A stretch of 60,294 nucleotides of DNA from an uncultured Gammaproteobacteria bacterium (GCA_965652415.1 CBFGVH010000005.1:1-60294); one strand, 5' to 3'; positions 6,095-58,527 are shown, counted from the stretch's first letter. Program-made: numbers and translations. Notes: a model not told the origin generated them from the sequence alone.

Positions 6095-6327
6095 CGACAG
6101 TGGTGGTGTACAGCCGCGACGGCTGCCACCTGTGCGAGGACCTCGTCGCCGACCTTTCCGTGATGGCCGCCGAGCACGGCTTCGCTGTCGAGGTGCGCGA
6201 CATCGACGACGACCCCGAACTCAAGGCCCGCTACCACGCGCGGGTACCGGTGGTGGAACACGACGGCGAGGTGATCTGCGAGTACTTCCTCGATCCCGCC
6301 GCGGTGCGCGCCCGGCTGGGCCTTTAG
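6091..6327 (+). CDS. glutaredoxin-like (thioredoxin-fold, DUF836/YruB-like) protein
   Basis: 78 aa: MTTVVVYSRDGCHLCEDL...VPVVEHDG. CxxC in a Grx-like context. ATG at 6091 inside the longer shadow ORF 5665..6327. Confidence 0.75.
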   Translation: MTTVVVYSRDGCHLCEDLVADLSVMAAEHGFAVEVRDIDDDPELKARYHARVPVVEHDGEVICEYFLDPAAVRARLGL

Positions 6328-6330
6328 CCC

Positions 6331-7092: not shown

Positions 7093-7123
7093 CCGGCGCC
7101 GCGGTCGAAGTCGTCGGCCGGTT

Positions 7124-30679: not shown

Positions 30680-30683
30680 GGTG

Positions 30684-31262
30684 TCAGGTCTCCGTGTCGG
30701 TTGGCGGGCGCCTGCCGCAGGCCGCGGCCAGCGCCCCCATGTCCGGGGAGCAGCGGCGATTCTCGCTGACCCTGGCGAATGCCGCCTCGAGATCGTAGCC
30801 GTGGCGGGTGACGAGGTAGCAGATCACCGCCGCCGGCGAGCGCTGCTGGCCGGCGGTGCAATGCACGTAGACGCGGTGTCCCACCTCGATCAGCCGGGCA
30901 AGGCGCTCCGCCGCCTGGGTCACCCGGGCCGCGAGGTCTTCGGGGTCGAAGTCGCGGATCGGCACGCGCTCCACGGCGATCTCGTGTGTGCCGTAGGCCG
31001 CGAGCAGGGCCGGCCAGTCGATGCGCCAGCGCTCGAAGTCCTCGTCGGTCTGAAGATTCAGCACCGCGCTCACGCCGAGTGCGCTCTTCAGCCGCCGAAC
31101 GTCGGCGGCGCGAACCGGGCAGGTGCCGATGAACACTTCGTCGAGCACCTGGTCGAACTGCAGGACCCCGTAGTCGCCGGCGGGCCGGGCGGGGGCGACC
31201 GGGGCCCTAAAAAGACGTTTCAGTGCTGCCGTAAACCTTTGTCTCGCCGCCATCGATTCCAT
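30684..31262 (-). CDS. dual-specificity (Cys-based) protein phosphatase
   Basis: P-loop VHCTAGQQRSPAAV (HCxxGxxRS). Start at 31262 or 31253, overlapping the 3' end of the OMP85 gene by about 50 nt. Confidence 0.7.
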   Translation of the reverse strand: MESMAARQRFTAALKRLFRAPVAPARPAGDYGVLQFDQVLDEVFIGTCPVRAADVRRLKSALGVSAVLNLQTDEDFERWRIDWPALLAAYGTHEIAVERVPIRDFDPEDLAARVTQAAERLARLIEVGHRVYVHCTAGQQRSPAAVICYLVTRHGYDLEAAFARVSENRRCSPDMGALAAACGRRPPTDTET

Positions 31263-32475
31263 AGCCGATATCGAGTCTCAAGTCGGTGCGCACGAACGCT
31301 CGCAGCTTGTAGCGAATACCGAGCCCGACGCCCACCTCGAGTTCCGAGGCATCGAACGAGGCGCTGTCCTCGAACGCGCCGCCGATGTCGGCGAACAGGG
31401 CACCGCGAAAGGTGTTGTGCCCGAACAGCGGGGTGATGAACTCGACGTTGGTGATGAAGTAGCTCTCGCCCTCGAGTGCGTCGCGCTCGAATCCGCGCAG
31501 GGTGCTGTTGCCCCCCAAACCGTAGCTCGGGTCGCCGAAGATCGTACCCGAAGACGTGCCGTAACGGACCTGGTAGTTGAAATTGGTGTGCTCGCGGTCG
31601 GTCACGTGATGGTAGCCGCGATACCAGGCGCTGTGCCTGACGTAGCTCGACTCGGAGCCGTAGGCGTCGCTGGCGCTCTCGACCTCGTAGCCGAACTCGC
31701 GCCCGGTGCGGCTGTAGAGCAGGTCGGTGATGTCGCGGTACTCGATGCCGAAGGTGAGCGCGACCACACTGGTGTCGAAGAACAGGCCCGTGTCGCCGGA
31801 CAGGTAGGTGTTGGCGTAGTCCTCGTAGCGCACCTGGCCGTGAACCCGCCAGCCCTGGCTCGGACCGGTTTCGCGCAGCCAGCGCGAGAAATCGATCCTG
31901 AGCGAGTCCAGTTCCTGGTTGTATCGGCCGGCCAGTTCGCCGCGCTCCTCGTCGATCTCGATGTCCTCGCTCCTGACCTCGAAACCGAGGTCCCAGGGGC
32001 TGCCCCACACGCGCGGCAACAGGTACTCGACGCTGAGCTGGTCCTCCTGCTCGACGTCTCCGCCCTTGAGGTCCTTGCGGCGCACACCGATGTCGAGCCG
32101 GCGATTGCGGCCGCCGACGTTGTCCCAGCGCAGGCGCGCGCCCCACGACCAGTCGCCGTCGCCGCTGCGGCTGAGCCGGGGCAGCACCAGCAGGTAGCGC
32201 TTCTCGTACACGGTGTAGATCAGCACGGTGTCGCCGTCGCGCCTCTCCAGGTCCGCGCTTACCCGTCTGAACAGCCCGAGGTTCATGATCGACTGGCGCC
32301 CGCGCTCGATATCGTCGTCGCTGACCGTCTCCCCCGGGCCGAACTCCAGCTCCTGCAGCATGGTCGACGGCTTCGTCTTCTCGTTGTCGCGGAACTCTAT
32401 CTCGGAGATGAAATACGACTCGGCCATGGCCGGTACGGCGCAGGCGGCAAGGACGAGGGCCAGGACGATACGCAT
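31207..32475 (-). CDS. Omp85/BamA-TamA family outer membrane protein (single POTRA + beta-barrel)
   Basis: 422 aa from MRIVLALVLAACAVPAMA|E. POTRA-like ISEIEFRDNEKTKPSTMLQEL. Alternating beta-strand pattern. C-terminal ...TETSF aromatic terminus. Confidence 0.75.
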   Translation of the reverse strand: MRIVLALVLAACAVPAMAESYFISEIEFRDNEKTKPSTMLQELEFGPGETVSDDDIERGRQSIMNLGLFRRVSADLERRDGDTVLIYTVYEKRYLLVLPRLSRSGDGDWSWGARLRWDNVGGRNRRLDIGVRRKDLKGGDVEQEDQLSVEYLLPRVWGSPWDLGFEVRSEDIEIDEERGELAGRYNQELDSLRIDFSRWLRETGPSQGWRVHGQVRYEDYANTYLSGDTGLFFDTSVVALTFGIEYRDITDLLYSRTGREFGYEVESASDAYGSESSYVRHSAWYRGYHHVTDREHTNFNYQVRYGTSSGTIFGDPSYGLGGNSTLRGFERDALEGESYFITNVEFITPLFGHNTFRGALFADIGGAFEDSASFDASELEVGVGLGIRYKLRAFVRTDLRLDIGYGIDGGETKVYGSTETSF

Positions 32476-32657
32476 CGACAACACTTCGGTTCTGGTCAGG
32501 TCACGATGCGCCGGCATACGGGCATCCGCGAAATGGACGGCCTGCCGGAACCCCCGAATCTTCGCGCGGATTCCCCACCCCCGGGTACGACGGGCCGCCT
32601 TGCACCCGCCGCGTACGATACCGCGCACGGCGCGCCCGTGTCACTAGCCGGCCGCCC

Positions 32658-35547: not shown

Positions 35548-37962
<2,415 letters not shown>

Positions 37963-38108
37963 CTATCGCCGCGGAAAAGACCCGATTTTAGCATTTTTTT
38001 CAACTAGATATCAGGTCTGTTCTGGACCCGTCCCCGCCCGATCCGGGCCCGGGCGAATCGGGTGCGAAGTTGAGCCCGAGGGGCGTTCGCGGCCCTGGCG
38101 CTGGCATG

Positions 38109-38124
38109 TGTTCCACGTGGAACA
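38109..38124. other. parS centromere-like site 1
   Basis: TGTTCCACGTGGAACA is a perfect 16-bp palindrome. 15/16 to TGTTNCACGTGAAACA, and both halves are accepted parS half-sites. Confidence 0.75.
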
Positions 38125-38316
38125 TCTGCGCATCACCGCCACCGGGCAGGATGCCTCGATATGACTGCCGGGGATGGAAAAAACACCCGCGGCGCCTGGG
38201 GTGGCATTGCGCGGTGCGTGCCGGCCAGGCCAGCGGAAGGTGTCATGATGCGCGCTCGGCACGCGCGACCGCCCTGCAGCCGCGCGCCCGAGCTTTGAAG
38301 GGGGGGGTGTCAGCGA

Positions 38317-38332
38317 TGTTTCACGTGAAACA
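38317..38332. other. parS centromere-like site 2
   Basis: TGTTTCACGTGAAACA is an exact match to the parS consensus. The palindrome extends to 20 bp (GATGTTTCACGTGAAACATC, 38315-38334). Confidence 0.85.
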
Positions 38333-38365
38333 TCGCCCTGCCGCTTCGATCGAACCGAGCGCGGA

Positions 38366-39466
38366 CTAGAGCCGCATCGGCATGACCAGGTAAAGCGTGT
38401 CGTCGTTCTCCGGTTCCTTGATGATGCAGCCGCTGTTGCTGTCCTGAAGGCGCAACTGAACCAGCGACGACGGCACCGCCTTCAGCGCGTCGAGCAGGTA
38501 ATTGACGTTGAACCCGATATCCAGTTCGGCACCGTCGTACTCCACGGAAATCTCGTCGCTCGCTTCCTCCTGGTCGGGATTGTGCGCGGTGACGGTGAGC
38601 AGGTTTGACGCGAGGTGGATGCGGATCCCCCGGAATTTCTCGTTGGTCAGGATCGCCGTGCGATTGAGCACGTCGGTCAATTCCGGGCGGTCGACGATCA
38701 GTGATACCGACAGGGCCTGCGCCATGACGGTCTCGTAGTCCGGGAAACGCCCATCGATCAGCTTGGTGGTCAGGGTAGAGGCGTCGGTGTGGAGGCGGAT
38801 GTGGTTCGGATTGAGCTCGAGCGTCAATTCACGATCCTCGTCCTCCAGGAAGCGCAACATCTCGAGTACCGCCTTGCGCGGCACGATCACTTGGCGAAAC
38901 GCATATTTTCCCGACTCGAGACTCGTCTCGCTCTTGGCGAGTCGGTGACCGTCCGTGGCTACCGCGCGAACCGTGTCATCGTGAATCTCGAGCAGGACAC
39001 CATTGAGAAAGTAGCGCACGTCCTGCTGGGCCATCGAGAACGCGGTCGACTCGAATAACCCCTTGAGCTCACGCTCGGATACCTTGAGGCGCTCCTCCCA
39101 GTCCTTCGTGTCGAGCCTGGGAAAATCCCCCGCGGGCAGGGTCTGGAGCTTGAAACGGCTGCGCCCGGACTGGATATGAGCTCCCTTTCCGTCGACCCTG
39201 AATTTTATCAGCGCGTCGTCCGGCAGCGCGCGGCAGATCTCGTAGAGCTTGCGCGCCATCACGGTGCAGCTGCCATCCTCGCCCTTGATGTTGCCGATCC
39301 GGAAGCTTACCTCGACTTCGAGATCGGTACCGGTGATGGTCAAGGAACCGTCCTCGACACTCAGGAACAGGTTGGAGAGGATCGGCAGCGTCTGGCGTTT
39401 CTCGACCACGCTGGTGGCCAGCCCAAGCGGTTTTATCAACCGGCTTTTTTCTATTTCCAGATACAT
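38366..39466 (-). CDS. dnaN: DNA polymerase III subunit beta (sliding clamp)
   Basis: 366 aa: MYLEIEKSRLIKPL...LYLVMPMRL. Three-domain clamp length. Confidence 0.97.
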   Translation of the reverse strand: MYLEIEKSRLIKPLGLATSVVEKRQTLPILSNLFLSVEDGSLTITGTDLEVEVSFRIGNIKGEDGSCTVMARKLYEICRALPDDALIKFRVDGKGAHIQSGRSRFKLQTLPAGDFPRLDTKDWEERLKVSERELKGLFESTAFSMAQQDVRYFLNGVLLEIHDDTVRAVATDGHRLAKSETSLESGKYAFRQVIVPRKAVLEMLRFLEDEDRELTLELNPNHIRLHTDASTLTTKLIDGRFPDYETVMAQALSVSLIVDRPELTDVLNRTAILTNEKFRGIRIHLASNLLTVTAHNPDQEEASDEISVEYDGAELDIGFNVNYLLDALKAVPSSLVQLRLQDSNSGCIIKEPENDDTLYLVMPMRL

Positions 39467-39659
39467 GACAAGTCCGGGAAGAGAATGTTCATTGAAACAC
39501 CTACGCCTGTGGACAACTGCCAGGACGAGATATTTTCCTTTGTATTCAAATACTTGAGTAGATTTTCGGCTGTGGATAACAGGGGTATGAATACCTGCGC
39601 GCCTGTGGGTGAGATGCTCGCCTCGGTGGATGAATTCTTACCCACAGGTTGTCCCCGAC
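39467..39659. other. candidate oriC / DnaA-box cluster with AT-rich unwinding-type patch (dnaA-dnaN spacer)
   Basis: Perfect box TGTGGATAA at 39571-39579. 8/9 boxes at 39508-39516 (TGTGGACAA) and 39638-39646 (TTACCCACA). 7/9 boxes at 39604-39612, 39625-39633 and 39660-39668. The ~40 nt at 39528-39568 are only about a quarter G+C in a very GC-rich genome. Confidence 0.5.
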
Positions 39660-41009
39660 TTATCCGCTGAGTTGTCTACGCAGGTTATTGTAGTCCTCCC
39701 CCATCTTCGAGTCGCTCTGAATCAACTCCTCGATCTTGCGGCAGCCGTGGATCACGGTGGTGTGGTCGCGGCCGCCGAAGGCGTCGCCGATGTCGGGCAG
39801 GCTCATGTTGGTCAGCTCCTTGGCCAGCGCCATGGCGACCTGCCTCGGTCGCGCGATGTTGCGGTTGCGCTTCTTGGAGAGCAGGTCCGAGACCCTGATG
39901 TTGTAGTACTCGGCGACCCGCTTCTGGATATTGTTGATGGTGACCTGCTTCTCCTGGAATACGATCAGGTCGCGCAGCGCTTCCTTGATCAGGTCGAGAT
40001 CGATGAGGCGCCCGGTTATCCCCGAGCTGGCGATGACCCGGTGCAGCGCGCCTTCGAGTTCGCGCACGTTCGAGCGGATCTGCTTGGCCATGAAAAATGC
40101 GGCATCGTCGTCGAGCGTGATGTCCTTCTGACGCGCCTTCTTTTTCAGTATCGCCACCCGGGTTTCCAGTTCCGGCGGATCGATGGGCACCGTCAGCCCC
40201 GATCCGAACCGCGAGATCAGCCGCTCCTGCACGCCGGAGATCTCCTTCGGAAAACGGTCGGAGGTGATCACCACCTGGCGCTGGCCTTCGAGCAGCGTGT
40301 TGAATGTATGGAAAAATTCCTCCTGGGAGTGGCTCTTGCCGGCGAAGAACTGGATGTCGTCGATCAAAAGCGCGTCCAGTGAGCGGTAGTAACGCTTGAA
40401 CTCGTTGATCTCGTTGTGCTGCAGGGCGCGGACCATGTCCGCGACGAAGCGCTCGGAATGGATGTACACGACCTTGGCCGAGTCGTTGTTCTGGCAAATC
40501 AGGTTGCCGGCCGCCTGCATCAGGTGGGTCTTGCCGAGGCCGACGCCGCCGTAGATGAAAAGCGGGTTGTAGGCCCTGCCGGGGTTGGCCCCGACCTGCA
40601 GGGCGGCGGCGCGGGCCAGCTGGTTCGACTTGCCCTCGACGTGTGTCTCGAAGGTGAAGCCCGGATTGAGCTTGCCCTTGGTGTAGTCCACCGCCGGGGG
40701 CTTGCGTCGCGGCGCGACGGCGGGCCCCTCGCCGGCGGGCTCGACGTCCACTCCGCCGATGGCGAGGGTGACATCGAGCGGCGCGCCGCTGTAGGAACCC
40801 GCGATCTCGCGCACCCGTTCCAGGAACGTGCGACCGACGAAGTCGCGGACGAACTGGTTCGGCGCCAGCAGGGTCAGCCGATCGTCGCGCTGCACCGCCT
40901 GCAGCGGCCGGATCCAGGTGTTGAACTGCTGATCCGTCAGCTCGTTCTCGAGGCGGTTGAGGCAGTGGCGCCAGATGCGCGGTTCGCTGTCTTGGCCGGG
41001 TTCGGGCAT
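39660..41009 (-). CDS. dnaA: chromosomal replication initiator protein DnaA
   Basis: 449 aa from [24 protein letters not shown]. Walker [12 protein letters not shown]. Domain [22 protein letters not shown]. The 61-codon upstream extension in the track is rejected. Confidence 0.95.
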
Positions 41010-41211
41010 GGTTGCTGCTTGGCAATGAAATCGGGCGAAAAGTCCCGGTCGCGGGCCGCGGTCGACCCCTCCGGCGGCAAGTCGGCGGCCACCGGCGGGG
41101 CGGCGCATCGGCCGCCAGGCGCCTGAAAAATCAGGGACTTTTCTGAAAAACTCGGAAACCCCGCGCCACAGCGTCGCGCTTCGCCACCGCATCGAAGGGC
41201 CGCGCCGGGGC

Positions 41212-41220
41212 TGTGGATAA
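41212..41220. promoter_or_regulatory. perfect DnaA box in the dnaA-rpmH divergent spacer
   Basis: TGTGGATAA (reverse complement TTATCCACA) about 200 nt upstream of dnaA. Likely an autoregulatory or origin-associated box. Confidence 0.6.
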
Positions 41221-41306
41221 GTGTAACGCCACCCCTTGCCCCGCCGTCAAGTCGAAAGCTCCCGCGCAGCGCTCGTCGCGCAGGCGGTCGCACTCCAGCT
41301 TCTCGG

Positions 41307-41336
41307 TTGACAGTATTCGCGGGAAAACAGTACATT
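41307..41336 (+). promoter_or_regulatory. candidate rpmH promoter
   Basis: TTGACA (41307-41312), 18-nt spacer, TACATT (41331-41336), about 57 nt upstream of the rpmH ATG. Confidence 0.45.
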
Positions 41337-41393
41337 CCGCCCCCTTTTGTAGCAGCGATCCGCGCGCTGCCGTACCGCACAAGGTTTGACGTC

Positions 41394-41528
41394 ATGAAGC
41401 GTACTTTTCAGCCCAGCGAACTCAAGAGAAAGCGGACCCACGGGTTCCGCGCCCGCATGCGCACGCGCGGGGGCCGAGCCGTGATCAACGCTCGTCGCGC
41501 CAAGGGGCGCTCGCGGCTGAGCGCCTGA
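41394..41528 (+). CDS. rpmH: 50S ribosomal protein L34
   Basis: 44 aa: [44 protein letters not shown]. Confidence 0.97.
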
Positions 41529-41547
41529 GGCGCTCGACGCCGCCCGT

Positions 41548-41919
41548 TTGTCGGGGCCGCAACGCGGCAGGTCCTCGTTTCCGCGCGAGCACCGCCTGCT
41601 CGACAGCGCCGGGTACCGGCGAGTGTTCACGGCCAGGCGGCGGGTCAGCGCCCGCCATGGCGCCTTCCACGTTCGGCCTAACGGACTGGATCATGCCCGG
41701 CTGGGCATAACCGTGTCGCGCAAGGTGTCGAAGAAGGCGGTCCAACGCAACCGGATCAAGCGCCAGGTGCGAGAGTATTTTCGCCACCACAGAGACAGCC
41801 TGAAGGGCATGGACGTGGTATTCACTGCCTATCCCGGATGCGCCGAGCTCGACAATCTCGCGCTTGCCCGGTTGCTCGAATCGCTGTGGCACAGAACCGA
41901 GGCCAAATGCGCTCACTGA
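41548..41919 (+). CDS. rnpA: ribonuclease P protein component
   Basis: 123 aa. FPREHRLLDSAGYRRVF plus basic RNR-type motif VSKKAVQRNRIKRQVRE. TTG start, so the start is uncertain. Confidence 0.87.
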   Translation: MSGPQRGRSSFPREHRLLDSAGYRRVFTARRRVSARHGAFHVRPNGLDHARLGITVSRKVSKKAVQRNRIKRQVREYFRHHRDSLKGMDVVFTAYPGCAELDNLALARLLESLWHRTEAKCAH

Positions 41920-42140
41920 TCATCCTCGTCCTGAAGGGCTACCGGTACCTCGCAAGTCCCCTGCTCGGGCCGAGCTGCCGCTTCTATCCGAGCTGCTCCG
42001 AGTACGCCATCGAGGCGGTCGAGCGTCACGGCTCGCTCAAGGGCGGCGCGATGGCGGTCGGTCGGGTGCTCAAGTGTCATCCGTGGCATGCCGGGGGTTT
42101 CGATCCGGTGCCCGAATCGTCCCCGAAACAGCCGTCATGA
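41907..42140 (+). CDS. yidD: membrane protein insertion efficiency factor YidD
   Basis: 77 aa. YRYLASPLLGPSCRFYPSCSEYA. Overlaps the rnpA 3' end and the yidC start (ATGA). Confidence 0.9.
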   Translation: MRSLIILVLKGYRYLASPLLGPSCRFYPSCSEYAIEAVERHGSLKGGAMAVGRVLKCHPWHAGGFDPVPESSPKQPS

Positions 42141-43846
42141 TGGAAACCCAACGACTGATCCTGTACGTGGCCCTCGGGCTCGTGCTGATGCTGCTGTGGC
42201 AGTCCTGGATACAGTACACCACGCCGACCCAGGCGCCGGGTCAGAACGAACAGGTCCAGGCCGGCGGGTCGGGCACGACGACTCCTGCGCGCGACGCCAC
42301 CGTGCCGGACGCACCCGACGCGCCGTCCGCTCCATCGGCCCCGGCGGCTCCGTCGACGCCCGGCACCCCCGATGCCAGCACCGAGGCGCCTGCCCAGGCC
42401 GAGGCTGGCGGCACCATCGTCGTCGAAACGGATCTTATCCGCGCCGAACTGAGCACGATCGGCGGCGATATTCGAAAGGTAGAGCTTCTCGACTATCCGG
42501 TTGACGTGGACCATCCCGAGGTCCCGCTGTCGCTGATGTCGTCCGAGCCGCCCAACATATTCATGACGGAAACGGGTCTGCTCGGCCGCGGCCACGAGTT
42601 CCCCAATCACCGGACCGAGTGGCGGATCGACGGCGAGAAGTTCACGCTCGATTCCGGTCGCGACAGTCTCGAGATCACCTTCTCCCACGAGGCGGGCGCC
42701 GTCACCTACCGCAAGGTCTACCGCTTTCGCCGCGACAGCTACCTCGTCGACGTCGAGTACAGGGTCGACAACGGCAGCGACACGCCCTGGAGCGGCTACC
42801 AGTACGCGCAGTTCGTTCGCACGGACTACGAAGAAGCCCGGACGATGGGGTTTCTCACCGCGCTGCCGAGCTTCCGAGGCGGCGCGATCTACACCCCCGA
42901 GGACCGTTTCCAGAAGATCGGCTTTTCCGATCTCGCCGATAGCGACCTCAAGCGCCAGACCGAGTCGGGCTGGGTGTCGATGCTTCAGCATTACTTCGTC
43001 GGCGCATGGCTGCCGGCCGAACCCGGTCCCTACGAATTCTACACCAGCGTCGCCGACCGCGCCGCGATGCTGCCGATGTACCGGATCGGCTACAAGACGC
43101 TGGCACCGGTGGAAGTCGCACCCGGCGCGTCCGGCGTCCTCGACAACCGCCTGTACATCGGCCCCAAGGAACAGGACCGCCTCGAGGAGGCCGCCGAGGG
43201 CCTGGTGCTGTCGGTCGACTACGGCTGGCTCACGGTCGTCGCCTCGCCATTGTTCTGGCTGTTGAGCTGGATTCACAAGGTGGTTGGCAACTGGGGCTGG
43301 GCGATCATCTTCCTCACCGTGCTGATCAAGCTGGTGTTCTTCCCGCTGTCGGCGGCGAGTTACAAGTCGATGGCGAAGATGAAGAACCTGCAGCCGCGCC
43401 TGAAGACCCTCAAGGACCGCTACGGTGACGACCGCCAGAAATTCCAGCAGGAGATGATGAAGATCTACAAGGAAGAGAAGATCAACCCGCTCGGCGGCTG
43501 CCTTCCCATCCTGGTCCAGATCCCGGTATTCATCGCCCTGTACTGGGTGTTGCTCGAGAGTGTCGAGTTGCGCCAGGCCGACTGGTTCTGGCTCAAGGAC
43601 CTGTCGGTGAAGGATCCGTTCTACATCCTGCCGATCCTCATGGGCCTGTCCATGCTGGTCCAGCAGCGCCTCAACCCGGCGCCCATGGACGACATCCAGA
43701 AGAAGGTGATGATGGCGCTGCCGTTCGTGTTCACCGTCTTCTTCCTGTTCTTCCCGTCCGGGCTGGTGTTGTACTGGGTGGTCAACAACGTGTTGTCCAT
43801 CGCCCAGCAGTGGTTCATCACCAACAAGCTGCAGGCGAAGAGCTGA
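42137..43846 (+). CDS. yidC: membrane protein insertase YidC
   Basis: 569 aa from MMETQRLILYVALGLVLMLLWQSW. Large periplasmic P1 domain. C-terminal core ...NPLGGCLPILVQIPVFIALY. Confidence 0.96.
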   Translation: MMETQRLILYVALGLVLMLLWQSWIQYTTPTQAPGQNEQVQAGGSGTTTPARDATVPDAPDAPSAPSAPAAPSTPGTPDASTEAPAQAEAGGTIVVETDLIRAELSTIGGDIRKVELLDYPVDVDHPEVPLSLMSSEPPNIFMTETGLLGRGHEFPNHRTEWRIDGEKFTLDSGRDSLEITFSHEAGAVTYRKVYRFRRDSYLVDVEYRVDNGSDTPWSGYQYAQFVRTDYEEARTMGFLTALPSFRGGAIYTPEDRFQKIGFSDLADSDLKRQTESGWVSMLQHYFVGAWLPAEPGPYEFYTSVADRAAMLPMYRIGYKTLAPVEVAPGASGVLDNRLYIGPKEQDRLEEAAEGLVLSVDYGWLTVVASPLFWLLSWIHKVVGNWGWAIIFLTVLIKLVFFPLSAASYKSMAKMKNLQPRLKTLKDRYGDDRQKFQQEMMKIYKEEKINPLGGCLPILVQIPVFIALYWVLLESVELRQADWFWLKDLSVKDPFYILPILMGLSMLVQQRLNPAPMDDIQKKVMMALPFVFTVFFLFFPSGLVLYWVVNNVLSIAQQWFITNKLQAKS

Positions 43847-45198
43847 GCGCGGCGCCGTCGGCGAGTCGATCCGCCGACACCATCGCCGCGATCGCCACGC
43901 CCCCCGGCATCGGCGGCATCGGCATCGTGCGCGTGTCGGGGCCGGCCGCCTGCGCTGTCTGCCGCGCGCTGACCGGTTCCTGTCCGCCGCCGCGACAGGC
44001 CCGCTTCGGACCTTTCCGGAACGGCGACGGCACCGCCGTCGACCACGGCATCACCCTGTTCTTTCCCCGCCCAGCGTCGTACACCGGCGAGGACGTGGTC
44101 GAGTTCCAGGGGCACGGCGGCGACACCGTCATGGAGATCCTGCTCGACGAGGTTTGCCGTGCCGGCGCGCGCCCGGCCCGGCCCGGAGAGTTCTCCGAGC
44201 GCGCCTTTCTCAACGGCCGCATGGACCTCGCCCAGGCCGAGGCCGTGGCCGACCTGATCGAGTCGGCCAGTCGCGAGGCCGCGCGGCTCGCCATGCGCTC
44301 TCTGGAGGGCGCCTTCTCGACACGCGTCGGCGAGTGCGCCGAGGCGCTCATGTCGATACGGCTGTACGTCGAGGCGGCGATCGACTTCCCGGAAGAGGAG
44401 ATCGACTTCCTCGCCGAGAGCGACGTCGCCGAGCGCATCGAGCACGCGCGCGCCCTCGTCGCGCGCACCCTGGACGAGTCACGCCGCGGCGCCCTCGTGA
44501 GGCGCGGCCTCGACGTGGTGCTGGCCGGCGCGCCCAATGCCGGCAAGTCGAGCCTGCTCAACGCGCTGGCCGGCCGCCAGCGCGCCATCGTCAGCGCCAC
44601 GCCCGGCACCACCCGCGACACCGTCGACGAGCGGGTCAGGATCGGCGGCGTGACGGTCAACCTGGTCGACACCGCCGGGCTGCGCGAGGCGGCCGAGGAG
44701 ATCGAGCGTGAAGGCATCCGCCGCGCCCGCGAGGCCGCCGCCGCCGCCGACCTCGTGCTGGCGGTCTGCGACGACGCCGGCGGCGACGAGGCGGCAGCTG
44801 AACTCACCGCGTCGTTGCCGCCGGGCCCGGCGACTCTGGTGGTGCACAACAAGATCGACCTCACCGACGCCGCACCCGGCGATCACGGCCGCCCCGGCCA
44901 CCTGTGGGTATCGGCGCTGAGCGGGGCGGGTATCGACGTCCTCGAGCAGGCGATCATGGCCCACGCCCGCCGCGGCGGCGGCGAGAACGCGTTCCTGGCC
45001 CGCCGCCGCCACGTCGACGCACTCGAGCGCGCCCTTGCCTCCCTCGACGAGGCTGCCGTCGAGGCGCGCCACGGCAACGGCGAGCTCGTCGCCGAGTCCC
45101 TGCGCCTCGCCCACGAGGCCCTCGGCGAGATCACCGGCGCGGTGACTTCGGACGACCTGCTCGGGGCGATCTTCGGCAGTTTCTGTATCGGCAAGTAG
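43810..45198 (+). CDS. mnmE: tRNA modification GTPase MnmE
   Basis: DTIAAIATPPGIGGIGIVRVSG, G-domain GAPNAGKSSLLN, C-terminal FCIGK. No in-frame ATG near the 5' end. Start is GTG at 43810 (37-nt overlap with yidC) or CTG at 43843, so the start is uncertain. Confidence 0.9.
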   Translation: MVHHQQAAGEELSAAPSASRSADTIAAIATPPGIGGIGIVRVSGPAACAVCRALTGSCPPPRQARFGPFRNGDGTAVDHGITLFFPRPASYTGEDVVEFQGHGGDTVMEILLDEVCRAGARPARPGEFSERAFLNGRMDLAQAEAVADLIESASREAARLAMRSLEGAFSTRVGECAEALMSIRLYVEAAIDFPEEEIDFLAESDVAERIEHARALVARTLDESRRGALVRRGLDVVLAGAPNAGKSSLLNALAGRQRAIVSATPGTTRDTVDERVRIGGVTVNLVDTAGLREAAEEIEREGIRRAREAAAAADLVLAVCDDAGGDEAAAELTASLPPGPATLVVHNKIDLTDAAPGDHGRPGHLWVSALSGAGIDVLEQAIMAHARRGGGENAFLARRRHVDALERALASLDEAAVEARHGNGELVAESLRLAHEALGEITGAVTSDDLLGAIFGSFCIGK

Positions 45199-45838: not shown

Positions 45839-45866
45839 AATATTGCCTGACCCGGAGAATCGCCCC

Positions 45867-46448
45867 ATGACCCGCCAGATCGTCCACGCCACGCTGCTCG
45901 CCGCGCTCGCGGCCTTGCCTGCTGCCGCCGAACAGCGCAGCCGCGGCGCGCATGTCCACGGCATCGCCACCGTCAACGTTGCCGTCGAGGGCGGCACCTT
46001 CGTGGTCATGCTGGAGACACCGGCGGCCAACGTCACGGGCTTCGAGCACGCCCCCGGCAGTGACGCCGAGCGCGAGCTGGTGGCCCGCGCCGCATCGCGG
46101 CTCGGTTCGGGCGAGGCCTTCACGCCCGACCCCGATGCCGGCTGCGAGCTGGAAACGGCCGAGGTCGAGGGCGCCCTGCTCGGCGACGTTGCCGAATACG
46201 AACACGATGACAACGATCACGCTCACGGCGACGACCATGTCCACGACGACGGCCGCGGTGCCCAGGCCCACGCCGACTTCGAGGCGGTACTGACCTGGAA
46301 CTGTACCCGGCCGGAAGCGCTCGCCACGGTGCGGATCAACCTGTTCGAGATGTTCGACGGATTCGACACCATCACCGTGAACGTGGCGGCGCCCGCCGGG
46401 CAGATCCGCATCGAGGCGACGGCCGCCTCGCCCACGGTTTCGTTCTGA
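45867..46448 (+). CDS. ZrgA-like (DUF2796) periplasmic His/Asp-rich metal-binding protein
   Basis: Signal peptide MTRQIVHATLLAALAALPAAA|E. His-rich loop EYEHDDNDHAHGDDHVHDD. GGAGAA RBS. The family call is by recollection. Confidence 0.75.
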   Translation: MTRQIVHATLLAALAALPAAAEQRSRGAHVHGIATVNVAVEGGTFVVMLETPAANVTGFEHAPGSDAERELVARAASRLGSGEAFTPDPDAGCELETAEVEGALLGDVAEYEHDDNDHAHGDDHVHDDGRGAQAHADFEAVLTWNCTRPEALATVRINLFEMFDGFDTITVNVAAPAGQIRIEATAASPTVSF

Positions 46449-46474
46449 TTGCCGCAATGTCAGCGCCCGCCCTC

Positions 46475-46636
46475 GTGTCCTGTCCCGCAAGCAACGTCAA
46501 ATATCGTGCGGCTGCAGCGGCCCCGGGAGGCGTTACGCCTCCTTGCCATATGGCCCGGTATGACTCGTCGACGTGCCTTGCCGGGAACCGCTACAGCCAC
46601 ACGATTTTCATGCGACAAACTTGCGGGACAGGACAC
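46475..46636. repeat. 162-bp imperfect palindrome with 17-bp perfect terminal inverted repeats (MITE-like element or structured intercistronic RNA)
   Basis: GTGTCCTGTCCCGCAAG (46475-46491) is the exact reverse complement of 46620-46636. A second tier of about 22 bp pairs 18/22. Internal hairpins include GGAGGCG-tta-CGCCTCC plus palindromes GCCATATGGC and CGTCGACG. Confidence 0.75.
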
Positions 46637-46683
46637 TAGCCGGCGCGGGTACACTTGCCGCCATTCATCACCGGGACCGGGAC

Positions 46684-47391
46684 ATGGCCGCCGCCCCCAT
46701 CATCGACATCGCAGATCTCGTGTTCGGCTGGAAACGTAACGAGGTGACTCTCGACATTCCCGCGTTGTCCGTCGAGTCGGGCAGCCGCGTGTTCGTGCAG
46801 GGGCCGAGCGGATCGGGCAAGAGCACATTGCTCAACCTGCTCGGCGGCATCATCGTTCCCCGCGCCGGCCGCATACGGGTTCTCGACGAGGACCTCGGCG
46901 CCCTGCCGGCGGCGGCGCGGGACCGGTTCCGCGCCGACCACGTCGGCTTCATCTTCCAGCAGTTCAACCTGGTTCCGTATCTCGACGTGGTGGACAACGT
47001 CCTGCTGCCGCTGCGTTTCTCCGCCGCCCGCCGCGCACGGCTCGACGGCGATGCGCGCGACGTGGCGCGGCGCCTGCTGGCCGACCTCGGCCTTTCCACC
47101 GCCGACGTCGATACGCGCCGCACCCACGAACTCAGCGTCGGCCAGCAGCAGCGGGTGGCGGCGGCGCGGGCGCTCTTGGGTGCCCCCGAGCTGGTCATCG
47201 CCGACGAGCCGACATCGTCGCTCGACGTGAAGCACCGCGAAGCCTTCCTCGCCCTCCTGGAAGCCGAGTGCGCGCGCTCCGGTGCCACCCTTGTGTTCGT
47301 CAGCCACGACCCGGCGCTGGCGCCGATGTTCGACCGGGTGGTCGACCTGGTGCAGATCAACCGCGCCCCGGGCGGTGGGCAGGTGCCATGA
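46684..47391 (+). CDS. ABC transporter ATP-binding protein (ZrgB/PA4064-like)
   Basis: 235 aa from MAAAPIIDIADL. GPSGSGKSTLLN, LSVGQQQRVAAARAL, IADEPTSSLD. Confidence 0.9.
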   Translation: MAAAPIIDIADLVFGWKRNEVTLDIPALSVESGSRVFVQGPSGSGKSTLLNLLGGIIVPRAGRIRVLDEDLGALPAAARDRFRADHVGFIFQQFNLVPYLDVVDNVLLPLRFSAARRARLDGDARDVARRLLADLGLSTADVDTRRTHELSVGQQQRVAAARALLGAPELVIADEPTSSLDVKHREAFLALLEAECARSGATLVFVSHDPALAPMFDRVVDLVQINRAPGGGQVP

Positions 47392-48647
47392 CACTGCTGT
47401 CCCTGGCGGCGAAGAGCCTCGCCAACCGCCGCTTCACCTCGATACTGACCGTGTCGACCATCGCCCTGTCCGTGCTGCTGCTGCTCGGCGTCGAGCGGAT
47501 GCGCACCGAGGCCCGCGAGGCCTTCACCAGCACGGTGTCCGGTACCGACCTGATCGTCGGTGCGCGCACCGGCGCGGTGCAGCTGCTCCTGTACTCGGTG
47601 TTCCACATCGGCAGCGCCACCAACAACATCACCTGGCAGAGCTACCGGGACATCGCCGCCCTGCCGGGCGTGGCGTGGACGGTGCCCATCTCCCTCGGCG
47701 ACTCCCACCGCGGCCACCGGGTCATGGGCACCGAGGCGGCCTTTTTCGAGCATTACCGCTATGCCCGCGATCGCCGGGTCGCCTTCGCCGCCGGCTCGAC
47801 CTTCGACGACCTCTACGATGCGGTGCTCGGCGCCGAGGTCGCCGCGCGGCTCGGCTACCGCATCGGCGAGGCGCTGGTCATCGCCCACGGCGCCGGCAGC
47901 GCCAGCGTGCTCGATCACGGGGACAAGCCGTTTCGCGTCGCCGGCATTCTCGAGCGCACCGGCACGCCGGTCGACCGCACGGTGATCGTGTCGCTGGCCG
48001 GCATCGAGGCCATCCACGCCGACTGGGCTGGAGGCGTGCCGGTACCCGGCCGACGCCTCGACGCCGACGCCGTGCGTGAACTCGACCTCACGCCCGACGC
48101 GATCACCGCGGTGCTGGTCGGCCTGTCGTCGCGGGTTCACACCTTCCGCGTGCAGCGCCTGGTCAACGAGTATCCCGGGGAGCCGCTGCTGGCCATCCTG
48201 CCCGGCGTCACCTTGGCCGAGTTGTGGAACGTCATGGGCGTCGTCGAAGGGGCGCTCATGGCGATCTCGGCGCTGGTGGTGCTGGTGGGCCTGGGCGGCA
48301 TGGTCACGGCGCTGGTCACGGGCTTGAACGAACGGCGCCGCGAGATCGCCGTGCTGCGCTCGGTGGGGGCGCGGCCGTGGCAGGTGCTGGGGCTGCTGGT
48401 TGTCGAAGCGATGTTCCTCGCCGCCGCCGGCATCGTCATCGGCCTGCTGTTACTCTACGCGGTGATCGGTACCGCCGGCGGCGCGCTGGAATCGCACCTC
48501 GGGTTCTCGCCGGCGTGGCGCATGCCCGGCCTCGTCGAGTGGCTGATGCTGGGCGGCGTGCTGGCGGCCGCGCTCCTCGCCGGACTGGTGCCGGGCATGC
48601 GCGCCTATCGCTACTCGTTGTCGGACGGACTGGCACTTAGACTATGA
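47388..48647 (+). CDS. ABC transporter permease, FtsX/MacB-type (ZrgC/PA4065-like)
   Basis: 419 aa from MTLLSLAAKSLANRRFTS. ATGA overlap with the ATPase gene. N-terminal TM, periplasmic domain, then three C-terminal TMs. Confidence 0.88.
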   Translation: MTLLSLAAKSLANRRFTSILTVSTIALSVLLLLGVERMRTEAREAFTSTVSGTDLIVGARTGAVQLLLYSVFHIGSATNNITWQSYRDIAALPGVAWTVPISLGDSHRGHRVMGTEAAFFEHYRYARDRRVAFAAGSTFDDLYDAVLGAEVAARLGYRIGEALVIAHGAGSASVLDHGDKPFRVAGILERTGTPVDRTVIVSLAGIEAIHADWAGGVPVPGRRLDADAVRELDLTPDAITAVLVGLSSRVHTFRVQRLVNEYPGEPLLAILPGVTLAELWNVMGVVEGALMAISALVVLVGLGGMVTALVTGLNERRREIAVLRSVGARPWQVLGLLVVEAMFLAAAGIVIGLLLLYAVIGTAGGALESHLGFSPAWRMPGLVEWLMLGGVLAAALLAGLVPGMRAYRYSLSDGLALRL

Positions 48648-49207
48648 ACATGAAACCGCTGTTGTCCCTGGCCTGCGCCATGCTGCTCGTCACGGGATGC
48701 AGCGAGGCGCCGCAGGAGTCGGTCGGCGCCGCGCCGCGCCAGCTCGAATGGGACGACCTGATGCCGGCCGACTTCGACCCGACCGGCGCGCTGCCCGATG
48801 TCGACATCGGGGCCCTGAGCGACGACGACCCGCGCACCCAGCGCTTCTACGAACTGGTGCGCGAGGCCTGGAACAACGCCCCGGTGGTCGCCGAGCTGGA
48901 CGGTACCCTGGTGCGGCTGCCGGGCTTCGTGGTGCCGCTCGAGTACGACGAGAAGCAGGTATCAGAGTTCCTGCTGGTGCCGTATTTCGGCGCCTGCATC
49001 CACACCCCGCCGCCGCCCGCCAACCAGATCGTTCACGTCACCACCGGCGGGTTCGGGCCGAGTCCGGAACAGTTGTGGGACCCGGTCTGGGTGACCGGCA
49101 CCCTGCGCACCGAGACCGTTGCCTCGGAACTCGCCCATGCCGGTTACCGCATGGACGCGACAGTAATCGAGCCGTACGAGGAACCGGCGGAAAGCGCGGC
49201 CAACTGA
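48644..49207 (+). CDS. DUF3299-like lipoprotein (PA4066-like)
   Basis: Lipobox LLVTGC|S. ATGA overlap with the permease. ...LLVPYFGACIHTPPPPANQIV... motif. Confidence 0.7.
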   Translation: MNMKPLLSLACAMLLVTGCSEAPQESVGAAPRQLEWDDLMPADFDPTGALPDVDIGALSDDDPRTQRFYELVREAWNNAPVVAELDGTLVRLPGFVVPLEYDEKQVSEFLLVPYFGACIHTPPPPANQIVHVTTGGFGPSPEQLWDPVWVTGTLRTETVASELAHAGYRMDATVIEPYEEPAESAAN

Positions 49208-54840: not shown

Positions 54841-55493
54841 GGCAGGATCTCGCCGTTGGCGTGCCAGAACGTCCCGCTGCTCGACATGTCGAGCGCGTCG
54901 AGGCGCGCGACGAGGCCCGCGGCTGCTTCCGAAGCCGGGATGCCGTGGCCGCCGGTCATGTCGGTGGCGACCATGCCGGGGTGCAGCAGCGCGACCGCGA
55001 TGCCGCGCCCCGCGAGGTCGCGCGCCAGGCTCACGCCGACGGCGTTGACCGCCGCCTTCGAGGCGCGGTAGCCGTAGTAACCGCCGCTGCCGTTGTCGCC
55101 GATCGAGCCCATGCGGCTGGTGATGATGCCAACCTTCGATCCCTCGTCCAGGTTGCCGAGGCAGGTGGCGGTCACCCTGAGCGGTCCGAGGGTGTTGATC
55201 TCGAACTGGCGCCGGATGGCGTCGAAATCCAGGCTGTCTAGGCCCTCGCGCGAGAGCACGCCGGCATTGTTCACCAGCACGTCGATGCGGGCGTCGCCGA
55301 GTCCTGCGCGCAACTCGCGCATGGAGGCGTCCGAGGTGACGTCGACGCCCTCGATGATGCGTGCACCGCTGTCCTTCAGTTCGCGGCTCGCCCGCCGGCA
55401 CAGCCCGATCACGGTGTCGCCGCGTTCGCCGAGGCGGCGCGCGAGTTCGAGGCCGATGCCGCGACCGGCCCCGCTTATCACGTAGGTGGCCAT
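54834..55493 (-). CDS. short-chain dehydrogenase/reductase (SDR)
   Basis: 219 aa from MATYVISGAGRGIGLE. NNAG. Catalytic YRASKAA. Confidence 0.88.
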   Translation of the reverse strand: MATYVISGAGRGIGLELARRLGERGDTVIGLCRRASRELKDSGARIIEGVDVTSDASMRELRAGLGDARIDVLVNNAGVLSREGLDSLDFDAIRRQFEINTLGPLRVTATCLGNLDEGSKVGIITSRMGSIGDNGSGGYYGYRASKAAVNAVGVSLARDLAGRGIAVALLHPGMVATDMTGGHGIPASEAAAGLVARLDALDMSSSGTFWHANGEILPW

Positions 55494-55631
55494 GATGGTC
55501 TCCGTCGACTTGGGAATCTTCAAGTGGGCCGGACATTATTTCAAACCCGGGCACCTCTTGCCTATGGCCGGCGGCGGCAGCGGCGCCGAAACGCTATCAT
55601 TGAACGATTTGAGGACCTTGCGGACGCCGCC

Positions 55632-56114
55632 ATGCGCCATGCGAAGCGACTCGCCTTCATTCCCGAGGCTCCCGGCAGCTACGCGCTGCTGTTTCGCTGC
55701 AATATCGCCCGCCGGGTGCGGGTCGGCGCGCTCGGCGTCGTCGCCACAGAGCCCGGCTGGTATCTCTACGTCGGTGCCGCGTTCGGGCCCGGCGGACTGC
55801 GCGCCCGCATCGCCCGCCACGCCCGCGGGAACAAGGTGAAGCGCTGGCACATCGACTACCTGCGGCCGTTCCTGCGCATGGAGGAGATCTGGTACTGCCA
55901 GGCGCCCCGCAACCTCGAGCACCGCTGGGCCGACCGGCTGCTGGACCTTGCCTACGCGACCAGTTCGGCGGTGGTGCCGCTGGCGAAGTTCGGCGCCGGC
56001 GACTGCGCCTGCCGCACCCACCTCGTGCGCCTGCCGTTCCGGCCGCGGCCGGAGAACCTGAGGTCGCGCGGCGGCTGGCGCTACGGCATCGTGTCCGTCG
56101 TGTGGCAGTCGTGA
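55632..56114 (+). CDS. DUF123 / GIY-YIG (URI) superfamily nuclease-like protein
   Basis: PGWYLYVGAA, RIARH, RWHIDYL, GAGDCACRTHL motifs. Start taken at MRHAKRL. Confidence 0.7.
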   Translation: MRHAKRLAFIPEAPGSYALLFRCNIARRVRVGALGVVATEPGWYLYVGAAFGPGGLRARIARHARGNKVKRWHIDYLRPFLRMEEIWYCQAPRNLEHRWADRLLDLAYATSSAVVPLAKFGAGDCACRTHLVRLPFRPRPENLRSRGGWRYGIVSVVWQS

Positions 56115-56242
56115 GTGCCGCTCGCGGTTTTGCATGGCGGGCCGCGTTTAAGGTTTAATGGCGGCGAGCATCATCCGGGTCGTGCGCACGAGCGTCACCC
56201 AACCGAAGATCCTATCTGTCCAACCTTGTTTTGGAGACCGAC

Positions 56243-56536
56243 ATGGCGAGCGAAGGCTATCACGAGCCCATCGAGGAACTGAGCGACGCCACCCGCGACA
56301 TGCATCGCGCCATCGTCTCGCTCATGGAGGAACTCGAGGCGGTGGACTGGTACAACCAGCGCGTCGACGCCTGCAAGGATGCCGAGCTGAAGGCCATCCT
56401 CGCGCACAACCGCGACGAGGAAAAGGAGCACGCCGCAATGGTGCTGGAATGGATCCGGCGCAAGGACCCGACGCTCGACAAGGAACTCAAGGACTACCTG
56501 TTCACCGAAGGCGAGATCGGTCACCACCACGAATGA
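56243..56536 (+). CDS. encapsulated-ferritin (EncFtn)-like ferroxidase, without recognisable targeting peptide
   Basis: 97 aa. HRAIVSLMEELEAVDWYNQRVDAC..LKAILAHNRDEEKEHAAMVLEWIRR is near-identical in pattern to the Rhodospirillum rubrum EncFtn core, with Glu/Glu/His ferroxidase residues retained. GGAG RBS. Ends ...FTEGEIGHHHE. Confidence 0.82.
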   Translation: MASEGYHEPIEELSDATRDMHRAIVSLMEELEAVDWYNQRVDACKDAELKAILAHNRDEEKEHAAMVLEWIRRKDPTLDKELKDYLFTEGEIGHHHE

Positions 56537-56595
56537 GTGCGACGAGCGTCCGTCGCGCTGACCGTCCGGCCGTTCGCGGCGGCTGACTGGCGTTC

Positions 56596-57315
56596 ATGGG
56601 CGCGCGCGGCGGGTTCGGATTTGCCAGCGGCCACCTGCTGGCCGGCAAGTACGAGGTCCTCGACTACCTCGGCGGCGGCTGGCAGGGCGAGGTATACAAG
56701 ATCCGCGAGCGCGGCACGCGCGTCGAGCGCGCCGCCAAGATCTTCTATCCCAAGCGCAACGTCCGCAACCGCACCGCGTCGACCTATGCCAAGAAGCTGC
56801 ACAAGCTGCGCAGCTGCCCGATCCTGATCCAGTACCACACCTTCGAGACCATCGAGCACGAGGGGCGTCCGGTCACGCTGTTCATATCGGAGTACGTCGA
56901 GGGCGAGCTGCTGCAGCACTTCGTCACTCGCTACCGCGGCGAGCGCCTGCCGTTGTTCATGGCCATCCACCTGCTGCACGCCCTGGCGGTGGGCGTGGAG
57001 AGCATTCACCGCATGGGCGAGTATCACGGCGACCTGCACTCGGAGAACGTCATCGTGCAGCGGCTTGGCCTGACATTCAATCTCAAGCTGCTCGACCTGT
57101 TCCACTGGGGGCCGGCCAATCGCGAGAACCGCCACCACGACATCTGCAGCATGATCCGCATCTTCTACGACGCGCTCGGCGGCCAGAAGACCTACGCCCG
57201 CCAGCCGCAGAAGGTGCGCGACATCTGCTGCGGCCTGAAGCAGTCCCTGATCCGCAAGAAGTTTCGCACCGCGAGCGAGCTGCGCCTGTACATCGAGGCG
57301 CGCGACTGGAGCTGA
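56596..57315 (+). CDS. small atypical protein-kinase-fold protein (RIO/Bud32-like)
   Basis: 239 aa. Gly-loop LGGGWQGEVYK, VAIK-type Lys in RAAKIF, catalytic loop YHGDLHSENVIV, metal-binding LLDLF in place of DFG. Confidence 0.72.
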   Translation: MGARGGFGFASGHLLAGKYEVLDYLGGGWQGEVYKIRERGTRVERAAKIFYPKRNVRNRTASTYAKKLHKLRSCPILIQYHTFETIEHEGRPVTLFISEYVEGELLQHFVTRYRGERLPLFMAIHLLHALAVGVESIHRMGEYHGDLHSENVIVQRLGLTFNLKLLDLFHWGPANRENRHHDICSMIRIFYDALGGQKTYARQPQKVRDICCGLKQSLIRKKFRTASELRLYIEARDWS

Positions 57316-57342
57316 CGGCGAGGCATCCCCGGCACGCCAGCG

Positions 57343-58131
57343 ATGGAATCCGTGACCCGCAGCATACTGACCATACTGGTGATCGTCGTCATCGGCTACG
57401 CCGTGATCTGCGCATGGATGTACGCCAGGCAGCGGCAGCTCATCTACTTCCCGACGCCCCCCGCGAGCGCCGCCGGCATCGAGCCGCTGTGGGTCGACAG
57501 CGCCGGCGAGCGGGTCAAGGTGTGGCCGCTCAACGAGGGTGCGGACGACGCCGTGATCTACTTCGGCGGCAATGCCGAGGACGTGCTGTACGCGGCGCCG
57601 CTGTTCGAGTCGGTGTTTCCCGATCGCGCGGTGTACCTGGTGAACTATCGCGGCTACGGCGGCAGCTCCGGCTCGCCCTCCGAGCACGGCTTCTACGCCG
57701 ACGGGCTCAACGTTTTCGACGTGGTGGGCGTGCGGCACGAGCGCGTGTCCGTGGTCGGCCGCAGCATCGGCAGCACGGTGGCCACCCACGTCGCCGCCCG
57801 CCGCCCTGCGCACCGGCTCGCGGTGGTGACGCCCATCGACAGCGTCGAGGCGCTGGCGCGCCACTACTACCCGCTCCTGCCGATATCACTGCTGCTCAAG
57901 GACCGCTTTCGCGCCGTCGACGATGCGCCGCGGGTGAGCGCACCGACCCTGGCGGTGATCGCGGCCGCCGACGAGATCGTGCCGCGCGCCAACAGCCTGC
58001 GCCTGGTCGACGCCTTCGAGGCGGCCACGGTGGAAGTCGCCTTCCTGGAAGGCGCGGGCCACAACGACATATCGGCCAACCCCGACTATGCAGAGACCCT
58101 GCGCGCGTTTTTCCTTGCCACGGCCGACTGA
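57343..58131 (+). CDS. membrane-anchored alpha/beta hydrolase
   Basis: N-terminal TM (ILTILVIVVIGYAVICAWMY). Nucleophile elbow GRSIGS. C-terminal GAGHND His motif. Confidence 0.8.
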   Translation: MESVTRSILTILVIVVIGYAVICAWMYARQRQLIYFPTPPASAAGIEPLWVDSAGERVKVWPLNEGADDAVIYFGGNAEDVLYAAPLFESVFPDRAVYLVNYRGYGGSSGSPSEHGFYADGLNVFDVVGVRHERVSVVGRSIGSTVATHVAARRPAHRLAVVTPIDSVEALARHYYPLLPISLLLKDRFRAVDDAPRVSAPTLAVIAAADEIVPRANSLRLVDAFEAATVEVAFLEGAGHNDISANPDYAETLRAFFLATAD

Positions 58132-58164
58132 GGCGGCCGCCCGGCCGCGGCGGCAGAACGTGCC

Positions 58165-58527
58165 GTGCGCCTGATCGGCGGCCTTTGCGTGCTGCTCTGC
58201 TACCAGCTCGCCGGCGAGCTGGTGGCGATCTTCTTCGAGCTGGCCATCCCCGGCCCGGTGATCGGCATGCTGCTCCTGCTGGCCACGCTGATGGTGCTGG
58301 GGCGCGCGCCGGCGGGACCGGACGCGGCGGCCGGCGCCCTGCTGGCCCACCTGTCGCTGCTGTTCGTACCGGCCGGCGTCGGCGTGATGGTGCACCTCGA
58401 CCTGGTGGCGGCCGAGTGGCTGCCGATCACGGCCGCTCTCGTCGCCAGCACCGTCGCCGGCATGGCGCTGACCGCCCTGGTGATGAAGTGGGTGATGCGA
58501 CTGACCAGCCGGAGGGCGCGGCCGTGA
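58165..58527 (+). CDS. CidA/LrgA holin-like family protein
   Basis: 120 aa with 4 TM segments. Typical ...LLCYQLAGELV...IPGPVIGMLLL. Confidence 0.82.
   Translation: MRLIGGLCVLLCYQLAGELVAIFFELAIPGPVIGMLLLLATLMVLGRAPAGPDAAAGALLAHLSLLFVPAGVGVMVHLDLVAAEWLPITAALVASTVAGMALTALVMKWVMRLTSRRARP

Follow-up and report, generated by a model that had tools for sequence, protein, structure and literature searches.

A short EncFtn-like protein and a compact protein-kinase-fold protein encoded as neighbours in a gammaproteobacterial lineage

In a 60,294-nucleotide stretch of DNA from an uncultured Gammaproteobacteria bacterium (GCA_965652415.1; hereafter the window), a gene for a short EncFtn-like protein is followed on the same strand by a gene for a protein with a protein-kinase fold (Table 1). 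A preliminary description of this DNA, with which the sequences of both ORFs agree, suggested that the two may form a ferritin-kinase functional module. The locus thus raises the question of whether the pairing is a conserved association between iron handling and phosphorylation, or the product of local gene order inherited within a single lineage. We addressed this by asking what each of the two proteins is, which genes accompany their homologues in other genomes, and how the two genes are arranged and transcribed in the lineage that carries both.

Table 1. Features of the EncFtn-kinase locus, in window coordinates. L018-L021 are the four further kinase loci that also carry an EncFtn gene.
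Feature	Coordinates	Strand	Evidence
DUF123 (GIY-YIG-like) gene upstream of EncFtn	55632..56114	+	Pfam PF01986, E=1.4e-23; L018, L019, L021
Short EncFtn-like protein, s-FLP / Non-EncFtn class, 97 aa	56243..56536	+	Pfam PF22277, TIGR04535, similarity to 3k6c
Intergenic spacer, 59 nt, without intrinsic terminator	56537..56595	+	Terminator search, fold z-score, RNA contigs
Compact protein-kinase-fold protein, 239 aa	56596..57315	+	Pfam Pkinase, alignment A1, AF2 model, Foldseek
Alpha/beta-hydrolase gene, 27 nt downstream of kinase	57343..58131	+	Pfam Hydrolase_4, Abhydrolase_1; synteny with L018-L021

The short EncFtn-like protein and its relatives

The first gene translates as a 97-aa protein (MASEGYHEPI...GEIGHHHE) that matches the EncFtn-like family of Pfam (PF22277) at E=1.9e-45; the score of 153 bits compares with a cutoff of 27, and the match takes in profile positions 2-85 of 85. 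We take the ATG at 56243 as the true start, since homologues have the N-terminus MA(N/S)EGYHEP and the ATG is preceded, at 6-7 nt, by a GGAG. Alignment to EncFtn of R. rubrum, with an offset of 2, identifies Glu30, Glu60, His63 and Tyr37 as ferroxidase ligands equivalent to E32, E62, H65 and Y39, and all four are invariant in the 15 homologues of alignment A2. The entry-site residues of EncFtn are likewise present in the window protein and invariant among homologues. These results bear out the initial identification of an EncFtn core with Glu/Glu/His ligands. In addition, NCBIfam TIGR04535 scores above its cutoff (138.5 bits versus 125), but of its 114 model positions the match takes in only 1-90. 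The protein therefore lacks the linker and targeting peptide, as had been claimed, and in the alignment it ends five residues past the core motif YLFTEGEI, without a targeting peptide of the SLGIGSLK or LxVGSL type.

A sequence search of the PDB returned NE0167 of Nitrosomonas europaea (3k6c) as the top match (80% identity over 94 residues, E=2.4e-46), followed by R. rubrum EncFtn (5da5; E=1.7e-35). NE0167 is of similar length (95 versus 97 aa), has the same ferroxidase residues and also lacks a targeting peptide, and its PDB entry holds 10 chains. The two proteins differ in their tails, which read EGEIGHHHE in the window and NKPIAHE in NE0167, the His-rich form being commoner among the nearest homologues. 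To our knowledge, neither protein has a published function. The R. rubrum protein, Rru_A0973, is 68% identical to the window protein in its core and has the ferroxidase and entry-site residues in common with it; however, like EncFtn of H. ochraceum, it belongs to the FLP-TP type, in which a 20-40-aa disordered linker and a SLGIGSLK-type targeting peptide are present, both of which are missing from the window protein.

The short, tag-less class was named Non-EncFtn in 2016 by He et al. (PMC5012862), who used 3k6c as a molecular-replacement model, and was termed s-FLP in a 2024 review (PMC11202242). The review describes NE0167 as a decamer, states that s-FLPs form decamers while giving their encapsulation status as unknown, and puts forward LFTD(E/N)KPIAHE as their putative targeting peptide, so far uncharacterised. 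Judged by its sequence, the window protein is an s-FLP: it has 97 aa, an EncFtn core and 80% identity to NE0167. The shell-less EncFtn class is accordingly not new, having been named twice and having a crystal structure that is 80% identical to the protein studied here.

A protein search with the window s-FLP yielded at least 8000 matches, the best 120 of which were used for figures on length, identity and tail. Nearly all of these 120 homologues have 94-102 aa and are 85-93% identical, and they span Alpha-, Beta- and Gammaproteobacteria, with taxa that include Sneathiella, Burkholderiaceae/Zeimonas, Methylophaga, Marinihelvus, Woeseia, Halioglobus, Xanthomonadales and Pseudohongiellaceae. A His-rich tail is common among them (GHHHD, GHHHE, GHHH, GH and similar), and the part beyond GH varies from 0 to about 8 residues, with GH and GHHHHDDDDD as the extremes. 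Two longer homologues (112 and 125 aa) were considered as forms with a targeting peptide and rejected, as their extra length reflects an internal duplication and an upstream mis-start.

We then looked for genes that accompany s-FLPs. In the annotated contexts from Marinihelvus, Sneathiella, Methylophaga and Pseudohongiellaceae, the neighbourhoods differ from one another and contain neither an encapsulin nor a kinase. A metagenome scan added 80 further s-FLP loci, 56 of them with at least 800 nt of downstream sequence, and none of the 80 has a kinase homologue near the s-FLP gene. When all ORFs of 84 s-FLP loci were clustered, no neighbour family was found in more than nine loci, and no encapsulin-sized neighbour recurred. 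For a 97-aa protein that is uncharacterised, the s-FLP is conserved to an unusual degree across proteobacterial classes, and yet it has no conserved neighbour.

The window itself was checked for a shell gene using the Pfam annotation of related contigs, which covers 1-11.5 kb, 16-29 kb, 35-42 kb and 46-60 kb. No member of the encapsulin (Linocin_M18) family is present among the genes annotated over these parts, which make up most of the window, and Pfam scans of ten further window ORFs revealed no encapsulin. A 292-aa ORF at 29801-30679 on the minus strand has no Pfam match; its N-terminus is hydrophobic and resembles a signal peptide, and we read it as a secreted protein. Together with the lack of a shell gene beside any of the 84 s-FLP loci, these data uphold the claim that no shell gene lies nearby. 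Thus, unlike FLP-TP proteins, the window s-FLP and its close homologues are not encoded beside a shell gene in the annotated and clustered neighbourhoods.

The annotation also brought out other features of the window. A putative metal-uptake cluster (45843-49207, plus strand), comprising a ZrgA-family zinc-uptake protein, an ABC ATPase, an FtsX-like permease and DUF3299, is located some 7 kb upstream of EncFtn, with genes of unrelated function in between. A gene for a dual-specificity (DSPc) protein phosphatase is found between that for an Omp85/POTRA outer-membrane protein and the 292-aa ORF (29801-32628, minus strand). The genes gyrB-dnaN-dnaA on the minus strand, followed by rnpA-yidC-mnmE on the plus strand (35548-45198), indicate that the window spans the chromosomal replication-origin region. 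An ATP synthase operon is located at about 14.9-21.9 kb, and isocitrate dehydrogenase is followed directly by its kinase/phosphatase AceK at 273-3360 on the plus strand. At 7124-8232 on the minus strand, the annotation of the matching contig L107 places a RES-domain toxin gene followed by an Xre-like/MbcA-ParS_C antitoxin, forming a RES-Xre pair.

The mini-kinase and its usual partner

The second gene codes for a 239-aa protein that scores above the cutoff of the Pfam Pkinase profile (PF00069; 48.2 bits versus 31.7), in a match that covers only positions 1-142 of 263, corresponding to the N-lobe and catalytic loop. In alignment A1, whose 23 homologues represent many phyla, the Gly loop (G26/G28/G31), Lys48, the catalytic loop H144-G-D146-L-H148-x-x-N151 and D167-L-F are invariant, confirming the earlier report of a kinase-fold gene 59 nt downstream with an intact Gly loop, Lys, catalytic loop and DLF. 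An AlphaFold2 model built from the alignment (pLDDT 89.3, pTM 0.82) was compared with the PDB using Foldseek, and the best fold matches were PknA and PknB, with a TM-score of about 0.74.

The assignment of this protein to a RIO/Bud32-like type was not supported by these comparisons. Neither RIO nor Bud32 is among the top 50 structural matches of the model in the PDB, the Bud32 models of NCBIfam give 16-20 bits against cutoffs of 125-246, and no RIO family matches among the Pfam and NCBIfam profiles. The architecture of Bud32 and RIO kinases combines small size, an HGDLxxxN catalytic loop and the lack of an activation segment. The window kinase is similarly small, has the HGDLxxxN loop and also lacks an activation segment, and yet it is found without a Kae1/KEOPS or ribosome-biogenesis context. 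A minimal kinase with Bud32/RIO-like economy is therefore a fair description of how the protein looks, with membership of the Bud32 or RIO families being unsupported.

Compared with Hanks-type bacterial Ser/Thr kinases that have a PP2C phosphatase as partner (PknB/PstP, PrkC/PrpC, Stk1/Stp1), the window kinase likewise passes the Pkinase profile and has the Gly loop, the catalytic Lys, Asp and Asn and the metal-binding Asp. It differs from them in its small size of about 240 aa and in lacking an activation loop, an APE motif and any sensor or transmembrane domain. HGD takes the place of HRD, a His replaces the catalytic-loop Lys and, in our reading of the profile alignment, a near-invariant Tyr64 occupies the position of the alphaC Glu. 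The helix after DLF follows at a distance of only about six residues in the model, which implies that there is no activation segment. With the alphaC Glu and the activation segment both missing, protein-kinase function is not certain. Outside the catalytic motifs, the family has invariant or near-invariant Cys74, Cys184, Cys211 (within a CCGLK motif) and His125/128/138 in alignment A1, and these extra Cys and His residues hint at a metal or redox site. Matches to the defence-system kinases mad6, PD-T4-6 and PglW (PADLOC, NCBIfam) were dismissed as generic N-lobe similarity far below the family cutoffs, and no other gene at the locus is matched by PADLOC.

At E<=1e-5, the family of this mini-kinase comprises 3038 proteins (clusters at 90% identity). 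They are uniformly about 240 aa long and about 60% identical across many groups, including Planctomycetota, Nitrospirota, Acidobacteriota, Desulfobacterota, Verrucomicrobiota, Krumholzibacteriota and Gammaproteobacteria, among others. To establish the genomic context of the family, we used the kinase alignment to search GTDB, with each species represented by a single genome, and retained 80 loci together with as much as 6 kb of flanking sequence. In 42 of these 80 loci the next gene downstream of the kinase encodes a PP2C phosphatase, as confirmed by Pfam PP2C_2, and five more have one within 1.5 kb; in locus L097, for example, the kinase at 6001-6696 is followed by PP2C at 6728-7642 (such loci range from L028 to L097).

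A kinase paired with a PP2C phosphatase is the classic arrangement of bacterial Ser/Thr signalling. The recurrence of this neighbour argues for a protein-kinase function of the mini-kinase family, which together with PP2C forms, as far as we could find, an uncharacterised conserved signalling pair. In the four kinase loci that carry an EncFtn gene, no PP2C is present within 6 kb of the kinase. In the window clade, the position that PP2C takes in other genomes is occupied by the alpha/beta hydrolase, and regulation of the kinase in this clade may differ, given that the usual PP2C neighbour is missing. PP2C is likewise missing from about 29 other kinase loci for which downstream sequence is available, none of which has an EncFtn gene.

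Gene order and transcription in the EncFtn-kinase lineage

Since a functional module would be expected to recur, as the preliminary description itself had supposed, we determined how often the two genes are found together. The EncFtn gene is present in only four of the 80 kinase loci (L018-L021), all from close relatives, in which the kinase is 79-90% identical to that of the window. No EncFtn gene is found in the other 76, where the upstream neighbours of the kinase are heterogeneous and include no recurrent iron-related family. The lineage with both genes is gammaproteobacterial, from sludge, sediment and rhizosphere samples. The fuller of its loci are syntenic with the window through CHAD, ParA-like, MaoC-like, aminotransferase, SDR, DUF123, EncFtn, kinase, alpha/beta hydrolase, LrgAB and S-methyltransferase genes, so that up to nine unrelated neighbours are syntenic too in the four EncFtn-bearing loci. 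Each of the five species of the clade has EncFtn, kinase and hydrolase strictly contiguous, including those in which an insertion separates them from DUF123, and the EncFtn-kinase gap measures 53-112 nt across the clade, always on the same strand. The insertion (L018:2250-4538 and L019:3383-5608) is about 2.2 kb long and includes a SnoaL-like gene between DUF123 and EncFtn.

The EncFtn-kinase adjacency shows no more conservation than that of genes in the block that plainly have nothing to do with either, and the pairing is explained by shared ancestry. The idea of a ferritin-kinase functional module did not survive this comparison: the adjacency is found in four of 80 kinase loci, all of one syntenic clade, in none of the 80 metagenomic s-FLP loci and in none of the four genera with annotated s-FLP contexts, and its conservation elsewhere, on which the proposal had been staked, was not found beyond that clade. 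An apparent 511-aa fusion of Pkinase and Hydrolase_4 (L001:10354-11889, GCA_027493835.1) was rejected as a false gene call, as a frameshift after CCGL leads into the hydrolase gene; in this relative, which is 93% identical, the frameshift is either an assembly error or a mark of a pseudogene.

In the window, a search for an intrinsic terminator in the 59-nt gap found no terminator-like site. The gap does contain a GC hairpin, but a T-tract is missing and its folding is not stronger than that of shuffled sequence (z-score +1.1). Contigs from activated-sludge metatranscriptomes cover both genes at >=99% identity, although their depth is low and DNA carry-over is possible. One of these, X25, extends over 56351-56614, from within the EncFtn gene across the gap and into the kinase gene, and another, X24 (56556-56654), covers part of the gap and the start of the kinase gene. 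The lack of a terminator, together with an RNA contig that crosses the gap, makes co-transcription likely, and EncFtn and kinase are probably co-transcribed in this lineage. No Rfam family matches within 55300-58400, and a comparison of upstream regions for a conserved element showed that the five clade members share a Shine-Dalgarno sequence only. Antisense ORFs that overlap the two genes, among them one of 447 aa on the minus strand at 56521-57864, were set aside as artefacts of high GC content; GC3 of the plus-strand genes is 0.86 and 0.93.

Two probably independent genes in an inherited block

The explanation that we favour, and consider probable, is that these are two independent and individually conserved genes, a free EncFtn of the NE0167 type and a minimal Ser/Thr-type kinase whose normal partner is PP2C, which are neighbours in an inherited block and probably lie on one transcript. 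We infer decamer formation, ferroxidase activity and protein-kinase activity for the window proteins. By homology to 3k6c, the s-FLP would assemble into an open decamer of D5 symmetry whose dimer interfaces hold di-iron ferroxidase centres, and it may act as a free cytoplasmic ferroxidase, or as a protein that detoxifies iron or oxidants, rather than as encapsulin cargo; one might speculate that its His-rich C-terminal tail serves as a metal-capture site. With PP2C as the usual operon partner of its family, the mini-kinase would most likely run a small reversible phosphorylation switch. EncFtn, kinase, hydrolase, LrgA, LrgB and methyltransferase form a same-strand string that is probably transcribed as one unit, and the adjacency of the first two would reflect inherited local gene order with no dedicated iron-kinase module. 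The adjacency is coincidental, or at most lineage-specific, and is not a conserved iron-kinase module.

Other readings can be placed against this. One holds that the short EncFtn is still encapsulin cargo, packaged via its C-terminal LFTEGEIGHHH by a shell encoded elsewhere in the genome, in line with the published speculation on LFTD(E/N)KPIAHE as an s-FLP targeting peptide and the mention there of s-FLP decamers (PMC11202242). We regard this as distinctly unlikely, as YLFTEGxI of the window protein aligns to YLFTEGPI at residues ~87-94 of R. rubrum EncFtn, within the structured core. In that protein the stretch precedes the protein's own linker and SLGIGSLK targeting peptide, which identifies it as the end of the core and not a tag. 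Furthermore, the tail after GH, with its variable length, is unlike a docking motif, and a shell gene is missing from all 84 s-FLP neighbourhoods and from the annotated parts of the 60-kb window. For the second gene, one may ask whether the kinase-fold protein is a protein kinase at all, or instead a small-molecule kinase or pseudokinase-like ATPase, by analogy with Bud32, RIO, Kdo and APH-type enzymes. Its HGDLHxxN loop in place of HRDLKxxN, the replacement of the alphaC Glu by Tyr64, the missing activation segment and APE motif, and weak matches to Kdo/WaaP and Bud32 models, all below their cutoffs, point in this direction. However, the Pkinase threshold is passed, with Kdo and Bud32 under their cutoffs and RIO absent, the closest structures are PknA and PknB, and PP2C recurs as operon partner, being present in 42 of 80 loci, so that we hold this reading to be rather unlikely.

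The reading closest to the original proposal is that of a lineage-specific operon, in which the mini-kinase of this clade, having lost PP2C as its neighbour, was recruited to a place behind the s-FLP gene, where it phosphorylates the ferroxidase or is co-expressed with it in an iron or oxidative-stress response. Such an operon would fit with the contiguity of the EncFtn-kinase-hydrolase trio in five of five clade species, the short same-strand gap without a terminator, the RNA contigs that cross it and the absence of PP2C within 6 kb in L018-L021. Against this, block neighbours that are obviously unrelated are equally conserved, so that synteny alone explains the trio; no independent origin of the pairing is seen in the 76 other kinase loci or the 84 other s-FLP loci; and the roughly 29 other kinase loci without PP2C are also without EncFtn. 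We therefore attach little probability to it. The more specific version, in which the kinase of this clade swapped PP2C for the s-FLP operon and couples phosphorylation to the free EncFtn decamer, acting for instance on decamer assembly or ferroxidase activity, appears highly improbable. If it were true, a kinase-coupled s-FLP would offer a first handle on how the uncharacterised, shell-less class of EncFtn is regulated.

As originally posed, then, the finding matters little, as the shell-less EncFtn class has already been described and the kinase adjacency is no conserved module. Two by-products of the analysis are of modest value. The mini-kinase of about 240 aa and PP2C form a compact signalling pair that is worth characterising in its own right. 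The short, tag-less EncFtn proteins constitute a very large family with no conserved neighbour and no adjacent shell, which strengthens the case that they work free of encapsulins.
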